DNA of 64,000 nucleotides. Source: an uncultured Acidobacteriota bacterium (GTDB taxonomy: Bacteria; Acidobacteriota; Thermoanaerobaculia; UBA5066; Gp7-AA6). Shown in pieces: positions 42,431-54,488 of the stretch. Where the stretch lies: the NCBI GenBank assembly GCA_963739435.1, contig CAVUAN010000016.1:129309-193308 (forward strand), read 5' to 3'. The notes under the pieces were generated by a model that ran no database searches, was not told the DNA's origin, and worked only from the letters and a program-made list of their open reading frames with translations. Position numbers and translations under genes: made by a program. Positions within the stretch are counted from its first letter, which is position 1. Every line of letters begins with the position of its first letter.

Positions 42431-43686
42431 CTACGGGTTCTGCCTCCCAGGTCGAAAGAGAAGCTGTACTTCGCCGAAAAGACGACGCGGAAGTCGTTCA
42501 CACCGAAACCGTCGGAGAAGTTCTGCCTGCGGCCCCACTGGAGCTCGAGGCCCGTCATCACGTTCTTCACGGGATAGAAGAGCAGGTTGGCCAGAGCGTA
42601 CTGCCCGCTCTTGAAGGCCGAAGGCAGCTGCCCGTCGCTGTTGGTGATGTCGAGGCGCGAATAGCCGACCGCGCTCGAGAACTTCTCGCTCCACTTGAAG
42701 TCGTAGAACGCGACCATGCCGAAGACCGGCAGAGCTTCGCCGACGACCGGCCGGCCCGGATCGCCGAAGTTCTCCCGGGCCCCGACGTCTGCCGGCGCGT
42801 CTCTCATGTAGGTCTCGATAGCCTTCCCGTACGAGGCCTCGAGCTTCAACTTGCCCGTCTTCGTGAGGTTGAGGACCGAGCTCAGGTTCAGGCCCCAGCC
42901 GATCGTGTGCCCCGACAGGTCGTACTGGTCCTTGAGCGTGTCCGTCCAGCCGACGTAGCGAACGATTCCGGCGAGCTGGACGTGCCCCCACGACTCCCCG
43001 TAGCGGAACTGAGCCGTGAAGTCCGGGTAGGGGAAATGGCCCTGGATGTTCTGCAGCTCGATCCGGCCCTTGAACTCGCCGCTGTCGCCGCTGCGCTCCC
43101 GGCCGCTCCAGCGCGAAGACGAGACGCGTGTCGCCCTGGATCGGTGTCCAGCGGATCTGGATGTTGCGGTAGATAGACCATCCCGTTCGGCCCCCAGAAC
43201 TCCAGGGAATCCGGGAAGACGTCCCCGTCCATGAAGACGCTGTTGGTCTGGCCGGCCAGGAACTGTCCGAGCTCGCCCCACGCCCGGCGCAGGTGAAACG
43301 TCGTCTCGCCCGCGTCGGCGCCGACCCCCAGGAGGTCGAACTCGAATTCCGTCTTGAGCTCACCGAGACTCGTCGGCAGCCAGGAGCGAACGCCGAAGCG
43401 GCTCGGCCGCACGCTCGCCCAGAGGTTACCGTTCTGCTCCGAACTCGTTCGGAAAGGACGGGAGCTTCGACGGACGCTCGACGTCGTACCAGTCCGGATT
43501 CGTCTGGTTGATGTCGTAGATCGTGTTGACGCTGGCGAAGCCGTAGATCTGCATGCGGAGCCCGGACTTCGGCTCGGGGTTTGCCGGGGGCTCGGCCGCT
43601 GTTTGCGCCAGGAAACACGCCGCCCGGAGCGTCCACAGCAGAACCGCGGCGATCGGAAGCGCCGCGGCTCGCTTAGCCTCCGCCAC
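42431..43686 (-). pseudogene. Porin-like outer-membrane beta-barrel (paralog of 53222-54488), three to four frameshifts
   Basis: Pieces in three frames, colinear with the paralog:
- [20 protein letters not shown]...[14 protein letters not shown]...PSFPNEFG
- (~43438) [54 protein letters not shown]...WGPNGMV
- (~43174) [25 protein letters not shown]
- (~43095) [24 protein letters not shown]...FSAKYSFSFDLGG. Confidence 0.75.
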
Positions 43687-44453
43687 TCTCGCCGGCGCTC
43701 TTTCGCCGGCCAGCCGTCAGCGCGGCGCGGACGAAGTCCGCGTTCATGCGGGCGATGAACTCGACCCGGATGCCCTTCGGGCAGGCCGCCTCGCACTCGC
43801 CGTGGTTCGTGCAAGTGCCGAAGCCTTCGGCGTCCATCCGCGCGACCATGTTGCGGACGCGGTCGTGCCGCTCGGGCTGGCCCTGGGGCAGGAGCGCGAG
43901 CTGCGAGACCTTGGCGCCCACGAAGAGCATCGCCGAGGCGTTCGGGCAGGCCGCGACGCACGCGCCGCAGCCGATGCAGGCGGCGGCGTCCATGGCGAGG
44001 TCCGCGTTCTCCTTCGGGACCAGGATCGCGTTGCCGTCGGGCGCGCCGCCAGCCGGCGCCGAGATGAAGCCCCCCGGCGGCGATGACGCGGTCGAAGGCG
44101 CCGCGGTCGACGACGAGATCCTTGACGACCGGAAAGGCCGCGGCCCGCCACGGCTCGATCGTGAGCACGTCACCGTCCTTGAAGCTGCGCATGTGGAGCT
44201 GACAGGCGGTCGTTCGGTCGCGCGGGCCGTGGGGACGGCCGTTGATGACCACGCCGCACGTGCCGCAGATGCCTTCCCGGCAGTCGTGGTCGAAGGCGAT
44301 CGGGTCCTCGCCCTTCCCGATCAACCCCTCGTTGACGACGTCGAGCATCTCGAGGAAGGACATCTCCTCGTTGACGTCGCCGGCCTCGTAGGTGACGAAG
44401 CCGCCCGGGGCTTTCGCGTCCTTCTGGCGCCAGACCTTGAGAGTGATCTTCAT
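43673..44453 (-). pseudogene. sdhB: Succinate dehydrogenase / fumarate reductase iron-sulfur subunit, one frameshift in a C6 run
   Basis: [24 protein letters not shown]...[19 protein letters not shown]...FDRVIAAGG, then a shift at CCCCCC 44070-44075 to [20 protein letters not shown]...[19 protein letters not shown]...[15 protein letters not shown]. The ATG overlaps the sdhA stop (ATGA). Confidence 0.85.
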
Positions 44454-51810: not shown

Positions 51811-53225
51811 GCCCGGGGCGCCTGTCCCGTCATCGCGGCCGGGTTCAGCACCTTTGCGATCTGCTCCTCGGACAGGACCTTCTTTGAGCGAATCAGCTCG
51901 AGGATGCCCTTGTTCGTCTTCATCGCCTCCGCGGCGAGCTCCGTCGACTTTTCATACCCGATGACCGGGTTCAACGCCGTGACCGTGCCGATCGAGTACT
52001 CGACGTAGTGCTTGAGAACGTCGACGTTGGCGGTGATGCCGTCCACGCAGTGCACCCGCAGCGTGCGCGCCGCGTTGATGAACATCGTCTGCGCCTCGAA
52101 GATGCAGGCGGCGATGACCGGCTCGAAAGCGTTCAGCTGGAGCTGGCCGGCCTCGGCGGACATCGTGACGGTCATGTCGCTGCCGATCACGCGGAAGCAG
52201 ACCTGGCTGATGACTTCCGGGATGACGGGGTTGACCTTGCCCGGCATGATCGAGGAGCCCGGCTGCTTGGCCGGGAGGTTGATTTCCCGGAGACCGCAGC
52301 GCGGGCCCGAGGAGAGCAGCCGCAGGTCGTTGCAGACCTTCGAGAGCTTGATCGCCAGGCTCTTCATGCAGGAGGAATAGAGGACATAGGACTGCGTGTC
52401 CTGCGTCGCCTCGATCAAGTCCTCGGCGAGATGAATCGGGAAGCCGGTGATCTTCGCCAGGTGTTCCGTGCAACTCTCGGCGTAGCCCTCCGGGGCGTTC
52501 AGGCCCGTACCGATGGCCGTCGCTCCCATGTTGGTCTCGCAGAGCACGTTCTGGATGCGCTCGAGCGCCTGGACCTCGCCCGAAAGCGTCGCCGCGAAGG
52601 CCTCGAACTCCTGGCCGAGCGTCATGGGCACGGCATCCTGGAGCTGCGTGCGACCCATCTTCAGAATCTGTGAGAACTCCTTGCCCTTCTTGCGGAAGGA
52701 CGCGATCAGGTTCTTGACCTCCTTGACCAGATCCACGTTGCCGAGAGCGAAACCGACGTGGAGCGCGGTGGGATAGGCGTCGTTGGTGGACTGGGAGCCG
52801 TTGACGTGATCGTGCGGGTCGCAGTACTTGTACTCGCCCTTCTTGTGACCCATGAGCTCGAGGGCCCGGTTCGCGATCACCTCGTTGGCGTTCATGTTGG
52901 TCGAGGTGCCCGCGCCGCCCTGGAAGACGTCGAGGCGGAACTCGTCGTGCAGCTTTCCGTCGATCAGCTCCTGGCAGGCACCCTCGATCCCTTTCAGGAT
53001 TTCATTCGAGAACTGCTTGCAGTCGTAGTTGGCCCGCGCGGCCGCGAGCTTCACCATGGCGAAGGCCTTGATCAGGTTGGGATAGAGCCGCAGCTCCACA
53101 CCCGAGATGTGGAAGTTCTCCAGGGCCCGCGCCGTCTGGACCCCGTAGTAGGCGTCGGCCGGAACCGCGAGATCCCCCAGCAGGTCGTGCTCGATTCGTG
53201 TGTTGGACTTGGAAACGGCGCTCAT
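51807..53225 (-). CDS. aspA: Aspartate ammonia-lyase (aspartase)
   Basis: 472 aa from the internal ATG at 53225: MSAVSKSNTRIEHDLLGDLAVPADAYYGVQTARALENF... with TSTNMNANEV, GSQSTNDAYPTA and GSSIMPGKVNP motifs. The ATG overlaps the upstream porin stop (ATGA). Confidence 0.9.
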   Translation of the reverse strand: MSAVSKSNTRIEHDLLGDLAVPADAYYGVQTARALENFHISGVELRLYPNLIKAFAMVKLAAARANYDCKQFSNEILKGIEGACQELIDGKLHDEFRLDVFQGGAGTSTNMNANEVIANRALELMGHKKGEYKYCDPHDHVNGSQSTNDAYPTALHVGFALGNVDLVKEVKNLIASFRKKGKEFSQILKMGRTQLQDAVPMTLGQEFEAFAATLSGEVQALERIQNVLCETNMGATAIGTGLNAPEGYAESCTEHLAKITGFPIHLAEDLIEATQDTQSYVLYSSCMKSLAIKLSKVCNDLRLLSSGPRCGLREINLPAKQPGSSIMPGKVNPVIPEVISQVCFRVIGSDMTVTMSAEAGQLQLNAFEPVIAACIFEAQTMFINAARTLRVHCVDGITANVDVLKHYVEYSIGTVTALNPVIGYEKSTELAAEAMKTNKGILELIRSKKVLSEEQIAKVLNPAAMTGQAPRA

Positions 53226-54488
53226 TGTCCACCTCCCAATTGGAACGAAAAGTTGTACTTGGCCGAGAATTGAACGCGGTAGTCGTCTACAGCGAAACCG
53301 TCGGAGAAGTTCTGCCTCCGGCCCCACTGGAACTCGAGGCCGGTCATGACGTTCTTGACCGGGTAGTAGAGAAGGTTCGTGCTGGCATACTGGCCGTTCT
53401 TGAAGGCCACAGGAGTCTGGCCGTCGCTGTTGGTGATATCGAGCCGCGAGTAGCCGATCGCGCTCGAGAACTTCTCGCTCCAGTTGAAGTCGTAGTACGC
53501 GACCATACCGAAGATCGGCAGCGCCTTGCCGACGACTGGCTGACGCGGATGGCCCGGATTCCTCTGGGTGCCGACGTCGACAGGCGCATCGTTCATGTAG
53601 TTCTCGATGCCGTCGCCATACGTGGCCTCGAGCCGCACATTACCCGTCTTGCCGACCTTGATCACGGAGCTCGCGTTGAAACCCCAGCCGATCGCGTGCC
53701 CCGAAAGGTTGAACTGGTCCTCGAGCGTGTCGGTCCAGCCGATGTAGCGCACAATCCCGGCGAGCTGGACGTGCCCCCAGCAGTCCCGCCCGTAGCGGTA
53801 CGACGCCGTGAGGTCCGGATACGGGAAGTGGCCCTTGATGTTCTGCAGCTCGATGCGGTCGGAGTACTTCCCGCTGTCGCCGCTGGCGCCCGGCCGCTCC
53901 AGGGCGATCATGAGGCGGTGTTCCCCATCGAAGGGAGTCCAGCGCAGCTGGACGTTGCGGAAGAAGACCATCCCGTTGGGGCCCCAGTACTCGTTCGTGT
54001 TCGGGAAGACGTCTCCGTCCATGAAGACGCTGTTCGTCTGGCCGGCGAGGAACTGTCCGAGCGAGCCCCAGGCCTGTCGCAGGCGGATCGTCGTCTGTCC
54101 GGCGTCCACCGCCGACGCCGAAGAGATCGAACTCGAACTCCGTCTTGACCTCTCCGAGGCTCGTCGGGAGCCAGCCCCGCACGCCGAAGCGGGTCTGGCG
54201 CACGCTGAACCAGGTGTTCCCGTTGTCGCCGAACTCGTTCGGAAAGGACGGCAGCTTCGTGGGGCGCTCGACGTCGAACCAGTCCGGATTCACCTGCTTG
54301 AAGTCGTAGATCGCGTCGACCATGGCGAAGCCGTAGATCTGCATCCGCGGCCCCGCCTTCTCCGGAGCGGCCGCCGGGTCGGAGGCGCCGGCCTGCGCGC
54401 GGCCGGTCGAGGCCAGCGCGAAGAACAGGACGAGACCGACGGCTATGGCGACATCGATTCCTCCTGAAGACCTTTTTGTACTGTTCAT
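53222..54488 (-). pseudogene. Porin-like outer-membrane beta-barrel (paralog of 42431-43686), one frameshift
   Basis: MNSTKRSSGGIDVAIAVGLVLFFALASTGRAQA...MQIYGFAMVDAIYD...EFEFDLFGVG, then a shift at ~54110 to VDAGQTTIRLRQAWGSLGQ...FSAKYNFSFQLGGGQ. Confidence 0.8.

Follow-up and report, generated by a model that had tools for sequence, protein, structure and literature searches.

We identified a ten-gene cluster in the DNA of a soil acidobacterium that is likely to be an operon for harvesting asparagine (Asn) and aspartate (Asp). The cluster lies on the minus strand of a 64,000-nucleotide stretch (the window; C16:129309-193308) of a metagenome-assembled genome (MAG) of 3.52 Mb, which comprises 30 contigs, is 87% complete and has a G+C content of about 66%. 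The source organism belongs to the class Thermoanaerobaculia. Scans with Pfam and NCBIfam models gave the order DcaP-family porin (porin1), aspA, a small gene that we call orfX, a DASS-family carrier, an AAE-family carrier, ansB, sdhC, sdhA, sdhB and a second porin (porin2). In the reading we favor, Asn and Asp would pass by way of the porins, AnsB, the AAE and DASS carriers and AspA to fumarate. The sdhCAB genes would be a housekeeping complex II operon inserted into the cluster, and the frame disruptions found in the raw sequence would be assembly errors. A conserved unit for the uptake and deamination of Asn and Asp, with outer-membrane channels of its own, is supported at the sequence level by synteny across Acidobacteriota loci and by the assignment of the porins to the DcaP family.

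We scanned species-representative genomes with an alignment of the porins and counted neighboring genes within 10 kb on the same strand. The scan yielded 76 porin loci, nearly all of them from Acidobacteriota (Thermoanaerobaculia, Vicinamibacteria, Bryobacterales, Holophagae and others). aspA and/or ansB lies near the porin at 40 loci and both are present at 30; aspA, DASS, AAE and ansB occur together at 19. By our estimate, chance would place a single-copy gene of a 4-Mb genome within 10 kb of a porin at about 0.5% of loci, and the clustering of aspA and ansB with the porin is far beyond chance. An earlier note on this DNA had allowed that the porins might stand beside unrelated genes in most genomes, and the 40 loci with aspA and/or ansB show that they do not. 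The linkage that it had proposed to look for holds for the porin with aspA, DASS, AAE and ansB. It does not extend to sdhCAB: these genes come after ansB at just 4 of about 41 cassette loci, namely the window, L035/G031, L040/G013 and L031/G012. Five loci (L021, L022, L025, L026 and L028) have the two-porin bracket porin-aspA-orfX-DASS-AAE-ansB-porin without sdh genes, and the whole ten-gene layout, second porin included, recurs in one genome (L035/G031).

The commonest partner of the porin family is an exported glutaminase (PF04960), which is found near the porin at 52 of the 76 loci. An exported Amidohydro_2 protein is found at 35. The most frequent layout is amidohydrolase-porin-glutaminase, the glutaminase/amidohydrolase-porin layout is joined to the Asn/Asp cassette at 27 loci, and the porin stands alone at 9-10. 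Loci that combine Amidohydro_2, a DcaP-like porin and a glutaminase with a signal peptide include L046, L057, L065, L068, L083, L089, L096 and others, often as one strand-block with aspA-orfX-DASS-AAE-ansB. We found no glutaminase or amidohydrolase homolog anywhere in the source genome, whose cassette is limited to the Asn/Asp branch, with sdhCAB and the duplicated porin added. Because exported glutaminase is present at 52 porin loci, the common theme of these clusters seems to point to harvest of amide nitrogen and acidic amino acids rather than to fumarate respiration.

The earlier note had suggested comparing the porins with dicarboxylate porins and modeling their barrels. We did so, and both sequence and fold identify them as DcaP porins. 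PF19577 (DcaP) matched porin1, once its frames were joined, with 88 bits and porin2 with 77 bits (cut-off 27). The matches cover positions 66-410 of the 410-position profile across both porins and 68-410 in porin1, and the unaltered 295-residue C-terminal piece of porin1 alone scored 61.8 bits. A profile of seven porins had a single match in the PDB, DcaP of Acinetobacter baumannii (6EUS, E = 3.9e-16). We used an AlphaFold2 (AF2) model of the L028 ortholog, which is 82% identical to porin1, for structural searches (predicted local distance difference test score, pLDDT, 85). Its top Foldseek match was 6EUS_A (E = 1.2e-20, template modeling (TM) scores 0.78/0.87, root-mean-square deviation 3.3 Å), and the next porins, including ordinary 16-stranded ones, matched at TM scores of about 0.55. 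The model of this ortholog, standing in for the window porin, is a 16-stranded barrel like that of 6EUS.

DcaP of A. baumannii is a trimeric, 16-stranded porin that passes di- and tricarboxylates, selects strongly for anions and has an N-terminal coiled coil of about 60 residues (10.1101/306035; 10.1101/2025.07.02.662759). The window porins share its Pfam family and give it as their best fold match, and both are linked to genes of carboxylate catabolism. They differ from it in several respects. They are only about 20% identical to it and come from Acidobacteriota rather than Pseudomonadota, and the genes linked to them concern amino-acid amides and aspartate, in place of dca-type dicarboxylate genes. 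The coiled-coil extension was not found: positions 1-65 of the hidden Markov model are unmatched, the structural model has no N-terminal helix, and only about 15 residues separate the predicted signal-peptide cleavage site from the first strand (RMQIYGFA). Invariant Arg residues are numerous in the porin alignment.

The two porins are paralogs, as the earlier note had recognized, and are 71% identical to each other. In a phylogenetic tree, porin2 falls in one clade with the downstream porins of L021, L022, L025, L026 and L028 (100 in the Shimodaira-Hasegawa-like approximate likelihood ratio test, SH-aLRT), and this clade is sister to the porin1 type. Since the upstream-type and downstream-type porins form separate clades, the duplication is older than these genomes. 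We found six fixed differences between the porin1 and porin2 types, two of which add positive charge in the porin2 type, and no clear signature of specificity or charge. A third DcaP-like paralog, about 52% identical, is encoded elsewhere in the source genome (C18:21285-22502, minus strand). It groups with a type that in relatives stands between ansB and glsA, and it does not adjoin such genes here. Porins 59-71% identical to those of the window also occur in MAGs labeled as other phyla, namely L029, L044 (Acidithiobacillales), L075 (Gammaproteobacteria) and L059 (Gemmatimonadales). In the tree, the L029 porin is nested among porins of Acidobacteriota MAGs, and that of L044 is placed next to them. 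These occurrences suggest mis-binning or recent transfer.

The enzymes of the cassette are assigned with scores above family cut-offs. AspA scored 709.8 bits on NF008909 (cut-off 510), matched the Pfam families Lyase_1 and FumaraseC_C, and contains the GSSIMPGKVNP loop. TIGR00839 gave 658.7 bits, just under its cut-off of 681.2, and the fumC models fell far below theirs. Orthologs of AspA in relatives are 85-91% identical, and a separate fumC-like paralog is present on contig C15. AnsB scored 447.8 bits on TIGR00520 (cut-off 314.3). Its N-terminal signal peptide and the catalytic motifs TGGTIAG and HGTDT, read from the sequence, are those of a type II asparaginase.

Both carriers resemble exchangers. 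The DASS carrier scored 320.7 bits on TIGR00785 (cut-off 198.6) and 367.7 bits on PF00939. Its nearest solved structures, and its sole PDB matches, are the chloroplast proteins DiT2.1 and DiT1 (E = 1e-83), which we take to be exchangers, and 6WTW/6WU1 (E = 2e-74), presumably LaINDY and likewise an exchanger. The carrier thus appears to belong to the exchanger branch of the family (DiT/LaINDY/CitT-like). The frame-joined AAE carrier, which consists of two Asp-Al_Ex halves and a TrkA_C domain, scored 656.6 bits on TIGR03802, the AspT equivalog (cut-off 546.95), over residues 4-556 and so over its full length. Aspartate:alanine exchange by AspT (TIGR03802 family) and the aspartate 4-decarboxylase AsdA is known from Tetragenococcus, and AsdA is usually encoded alongside the carrier. 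In the source genome (87% complete) we did not find AsdA; the best match of TIGR03801 reached 38 bits against a cut-off of 435. The classic Asp:Ala cycle is therefore unlikely. Because AsdA was not found and the partner enzyme here is aspartase, a C4-dicarboxylate is more likely than alanine as the counter-substrate of the AAE carrier. Exchange of Asp for a C4-dicarboxylate would be the likeliest mode of transport for the two carriers.

orfX codes for a protein that we consider a putative periplasmic partner of the DASS carrier. It is found directly upstream of DASS wherever DASS is present (22-24 loci). In the five relatives inspected it is a separate gene whose TGA overlaps the DASS start codon (ATGA), so that the two genes appear translationally coupled. 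The protein has no match to a Pfam family. It carries a signal peptide and is predicted to form an 8-stranded beta-barrel (AF2, pLDDT 83), whose fold matches are weak and fall on dirigent-like barrels (E = 4e-4, TM 0.4-0.48). We know of no described periplasmic partner of DASS carriers.

The genes of the cluster are tightly packed (Table 1). ATGA overlaps join porin1 to aspA, aspA to orfX and sdhA to sdhB. The Shine-Dalgarno sequence of ansB (TAGGAGG) contains the stop codon (TAG) of the AAE gene, and the GTG start of porin2 lies 14 nt before the sdhB stop, with 11 nt between the two codons. The widest gap is the 59-nt spacer between ansB and sdhC. Compared with the orthologous junction of L016, at which ansB and sdhC nearly touch, most of this spacer (47055-47098, minus strand) is an insertion of 43 nt, which may be an internal promoter or filler. 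The family assignments and coordinates agree with the gene order, strand and junctions described in the earlier note. All nine genes that it listed are present, and it omitted orfX (51294-51810) as the tenth. Our scan of the cluster found no promoter-like sites, including none of the sigma-54 type, and terminator-like sites were not more frequent than in shuffled sequences. When we aligned the region upstream of porin1 with relatives for an operator or a sigma-54 box, the relatives had a different coding gene there. An Rfam scan gave a sole match, sub-threshold and by chance, inside the DASS gene. The tight junctions, and the lack of a terminator signal above the shuffled background, support a single operon, and sdhCAB is probably co-transcribed with the cassette.

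Table 1. Genes of the cluster, in transcriptional order; positions are those of the window.
Gene	Position	Strand	Product	Reading frame in the assembly
porin1	53222..54488	-	DcaP-family outer-membrane porin, signal peptide	broken by 1-base insertion at 54110
aspA	51807..53225	-	aspartate ammonia-lyase	intact
orfX	51294..51810	-	small secreted protein, ~165 aa	fused in-frame to DASS
DASS carrier	49891..51297	-	dicarboxylate carrier, probable exchanger branch	intact from ATG 51297
AAE carrier	48198..49876	-	AspT-like carrier	broken by 1-base insertions at 49088, 48394
ansB	47102..48188	-	periplasmic type II L-asparaginase	broken by 1-base insertion at 47458
sdhC/frdC	46381..47043	-	single-subunit cytochrome b membrane anchor, b558 family	intact
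sdhA/frdA	44450..46367	-	flavoprotein subunit	four 1-base insertions at 45811, 45310, 45276, 44786
sdhB/frdB	43673..44453	-	iron-sulfur subunit	broken by 1-base insertion at 44075
porin2	42431..43686	-	paralogous DcaP-family porin	insertions at 43436, 43174, ~43098; probable 1-base loss near 42440

We propose a pathway based on the family assignments and the conserved synteny. Asn and Asp would cross the outer membrane through the DcaP-type porins, which are probably anion-preferring. Periplasmic AnsB would convert Asn to Asp and ammonium. Import of Asp, probably against a C4-dicarboxylate, would then fall to the AAE carrier (AspT-like), the DASS exchanger (DiT/LaINDY-like) or both, with orfX assisting DASS. 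In the cytoplasm, AspA would free the second ammonium and leave fumarate, which would join the C4 pool. Complex II would connect fumarate to the quinone pool in a direction set by the redox state. With sdhCAB placed between ansB and porin2, the enzyme could oxidize succinate under oxic conditions and reduce fumarate when oxygen is limiting.

The sdhCAB genes have the arrangement of a type B complex II, a three-gene C-A-B operon with one b558-family anchor. SdhC scored 196.2 bits on TIGR02046 (cut-off 96), its sole PDB match is chain C of 9LAY (E = 1.7e-51), and its His-containing motifs are conserved in the alignment. The frame-joined SdhA scored 1180 bits on NF005749 (cut-off 866) and also matched TIGR01811. 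Its best PDB match is 9LAY_A (1126 bits), which makes 9LAY the closest solved complex, and its orthologs in relatives are intact and 70-92% identical. SdhB scored 433 bits on NF005746 (cut-off 243). A local tblastn search of the source genome (87% complete) found no second complex II for succinate oxidation, such as would mark sdhCAB as a dedicated quinol:fumarate reductase. Among 30 relatives compared, many lack the cassette and have the b558-type enzyme as their only complex II. As no other complex II was found in the genome and many relatives have this one alone, sdhCAB is best regarded as a housekeeping complex II brought beside the cassette.

Other relatives have a second type of complex II that is about 40% identical to the b558 type, and three genomes have both, whereas many have just one. 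We noted these two unrelated types within the order in the relatives G002, G006 and G012. An ortholog of sdhA lies about 1-2 kb from a fumC-like gene in G008 (C2:743199-748238) and G015 (C2:1475036-1479117). The C4 enzyme that accompanies complex II thus appears to vary between lineages.

The earlier note had read the cluster as a self-contained module running from uptake to respiration. Such a dedicated module would convert Asn and Asp to fumarate, reduce the fumarate with FrdCAB and release succinate through an antiporter and a second, "exit" porin. All the parts that it needs are present in one strand-block with overlapping junctions, G031 has the same layout, and in G012 and G013 the sdhCAB genes come after ansB. 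Anaerobes use b558-type enzymes of this subfamily as fumarate reductases; one example is Prevotella bivia, where the fumarate comes from Asn (PMC8585091). Exchanger-type DASS and AAE carriers would also suit the antiport of Asp and succinate, as performed by DcuA (PMC10634366). Several observations nevertheless make a dedicated respiratory module unlikely. About 37 of the 41 cassette loci lack sdhCAB, the five nearest two-porin loci among them. In this genome sdhCAB encodes the sole complex II found, and the same enzyme is the only one in many relatives without the cassette. The source genome also encodes two heme-copper oxidase subunit I genes and cydAB, and nothing in our sequence comparison tells an "exit" porin from an "entry" porin. 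From the earlier proposal we therefore keep a conserved uptake and deamination unit that has channels of its own, and set aside the link to fumarate respiration, for which the case is weaker.

The DcuA protein of E. coli acts as an Asp/fumarate shuttle and is the model for another reading, in which the cluster serves nitrogen scavenging alone. Both nitrogens would be stripped from Asn, fumarate would be returned in exchange for new Asp, and sdhCAB would be a mere neighbor. This reading fits the linkage of the porin family to the exported glutaminase and the exported amidohydrolase, often fused to the Asn/Asp cassette, and it fits a pair of exchanger-type carriers with no symporter. However, in two genomes sdhCAB lies inside the two-porin bracket with overlapping start and stop codons, which argues for coupling to C4 metabolism, and our scan identified no sigma-54-type or other promoter. 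We consider a pure nitrogen shuttle improbable. A broader version of these ideas would make AnsB (GlsA in relatives), orfX, AAE and DASS a single conduit based on the DcaP porins, part of a modular system across the cell envelope by which Acidobacteriota mineralize amide amino acids. In this lineage the two porins would divide Asn/Asp import from succinate export, and co-expression of complex II would let asparagine supply a respiratory electron acceptor once oxygen is exhausted. We find this version quite improbable.

The raw sequence of the cluster contains many frame disruptions. The earlier note treated the genes as open frames and read through the shifts without comment, and the raw sequence breaks or fuses eight of the ten genes. 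The porin motifs that it quoted are present, although one of them (EFEFDL.GVG.DAG) straddles the frameshift at 54110. We mapped the shifts in three ways, by placing intact orthologous proteins on the window, by base-level alignments and by a codon-usage Viterbi frame track, and all three agree on the insertions. In total, 12 single-base insertions were mapped against intact orthologs (Table 1). Two further indels are probably present, an insertion in the tail of orfX (~51300-51330) and the one-base loss before the porin2 stop. The apparent 639-residue DASS protein is in fact two genes, and its first ~170 codons are orfX. When the mapped bases are conceptually removed, the frame-joined proteins are full length and have no internal stop. 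The frame of cydA, which lies outside the cluster in the window (56999-58330, minus strand), changes once near 57374, a shift of the same +1 kind.

The same kind of disruption runs through the whole genome. The essential gene rpoB is likewise split (C21:129337-133537), and one coxA gene is spread over three frames (C12:3667-4998). A genome-wide scan returned about 1679 candidate shifts (0.48 per kb) with an insertion:deletion ratio of 1233:446, or 615:133 in the high-confidence subset. We applied the same detector to the 76 related porin loci. Nanopore MAGs of the Microflora Danica (MFD) project (PMC12313526) showed 0.35 shifts per kb (229:61), and the loci of other MAGs showed 0.06 per kb (18:15). 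Because the signature is genome-wide and biased toward insertions, because rpoB is split and because the pattern matches Nanopore but not other MAGs, the frame disruptions are best read as long-read assembly errors, neither pseudogenes nor recoding; we infer the status of each individual site. With roughly one indel per 2 kb, the apparent pseudogenes and gene fusions of this MAG are not to be trusted.

These data bear on two other explanations of the shifts. If the cluster were a decaying relic, the shifts would be genuine inactivating mutations, and the 12 mapped shifts and two inferred indels within 12 kb, roughly double the candidate density of the genome as a whole, would fit such decay. 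Yet every mapped shift is a +1 insertion, nonsense codons and larger deletions are absent, and each segment is still 80-99% similar to intact orthologs. Break positions also differ from those in L035, the closest relative with the same layout. Decay is thus very unlikely, and we rejected real pseudogenization because of the bias toward insertions across the genome, the split in rpoB and the control by MAG type, in which the signature fits Nanopore and not short-read MAGs. Programmed recoding, by quadruplet decoding of a codon such as CGGN or by +1 ribosomal frameshifting, would agree with the common +1 direction and with the position of several sites near CGG, but we give it almost no credence and rejected CGGN decoding, as in-frame CGG is a frequent, ordinary Arg codon in intact genes (8 in aspA, 9 in cydB and 5 in DASS), the sites share no sequence motif, and the extra base is absent from orthologs at every site.

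Some observations weigh against the Asn/Asp harvesting operon as we describe it. The 59-nt spacer between ansB and sdhC could harbor an internal promoter. The assembly is 87% complete, so that both a second complex II and an AsdA gene could be missing from it. The cluster has about 1 shift per kb, double the mean of the genome, yet this density lies within the observed spread: at least 10 candidate shifts, at least the count of the cluster, occur in 16% of 12-kb windows of the genome.

We compared the cluster to known systems for Asn and Asp use. The AnsB, AspA, DcuA/DcuB and FrdABCD route of fumarate respiration on Asn and Asp, together with the Asp/fumarate nitrogen shuttle, has been described in E. 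coli, Campylobacter jejuni and Actinobacillus succinogenes (PMC10634366; 10.1101/2021.03.01.433382; PMC5293742). The window shares with this route a periplasmic type II asparaginase, a cytoplasmic aspartase, carriers beside aspA (as in the dcuA-aspA pairing) and a complex II acting on fumarate and succinate. Its carriers are AspT-like AAE and DiT/LaINDY-like DASS proteins and not members of the Dcu family. The unit also includes outer-membrane porins and a small secreted barrel protein in one strand-block, and it has a single b558-type complex II in place of a dedicated FrdABCD beside SdhCDAB. The Asn-to-fumarate metabolism of the P. bivia/Bacteroides type uses a three-subunit FrdCAB (PMC8585091). 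P. bivia likewise makes fumarate with asparaginase and aspartase and has a type B complex II with a single cytochrome b anchor. It is a strict anaerobe, whereas the window genome has heme-copper and bd oxidases, and no linkage to porins or carriers has been described for it.

The AAE carrier resembles AspT and differs from the AspT-AsdA system in being partnered by aspartase. The exported glutaminase/amidohydrolase/porin cassettes of relatives use the same porin family, and they too wire a periplasmic, ammonia-releasing hydrolase to an outer-membrane channel. The biochemical route and the pairings of aspA with carriers are already well known, and the porin-containing Asn/Asp operon is a variant of such systems and a sister of the glutaminase/porin cassette. 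Our literature search found no paper that joins Acidobacteria with aspartase and asparaginase, that joins Thermoanaerobaculia with the cluster, or that describes an Asn/Asp operon with porin genes in Acidobacteriota.

By abundance, Acidobacteria rank with the leading bacteria of soils, and their acquisition of organic nitrogen is poorly known. The loci described here represent a widespread and undescribed family of operons in which a DcaP-type channel is tied to a periplasmic asparaginase or glutaminase, an aspartase and two exchanger-type carriers. They offer candidate substrates (Asn, Asp and C4-dicarboxylates) for a family of porins whose study has until now been confined to Acinetobacter and provide a first functional context for orfX, the conserved secreted partner proposed for a DASS transporter. 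They also suggest that an AspT-like carrier may work with aspartase instead of a decarboxylase.

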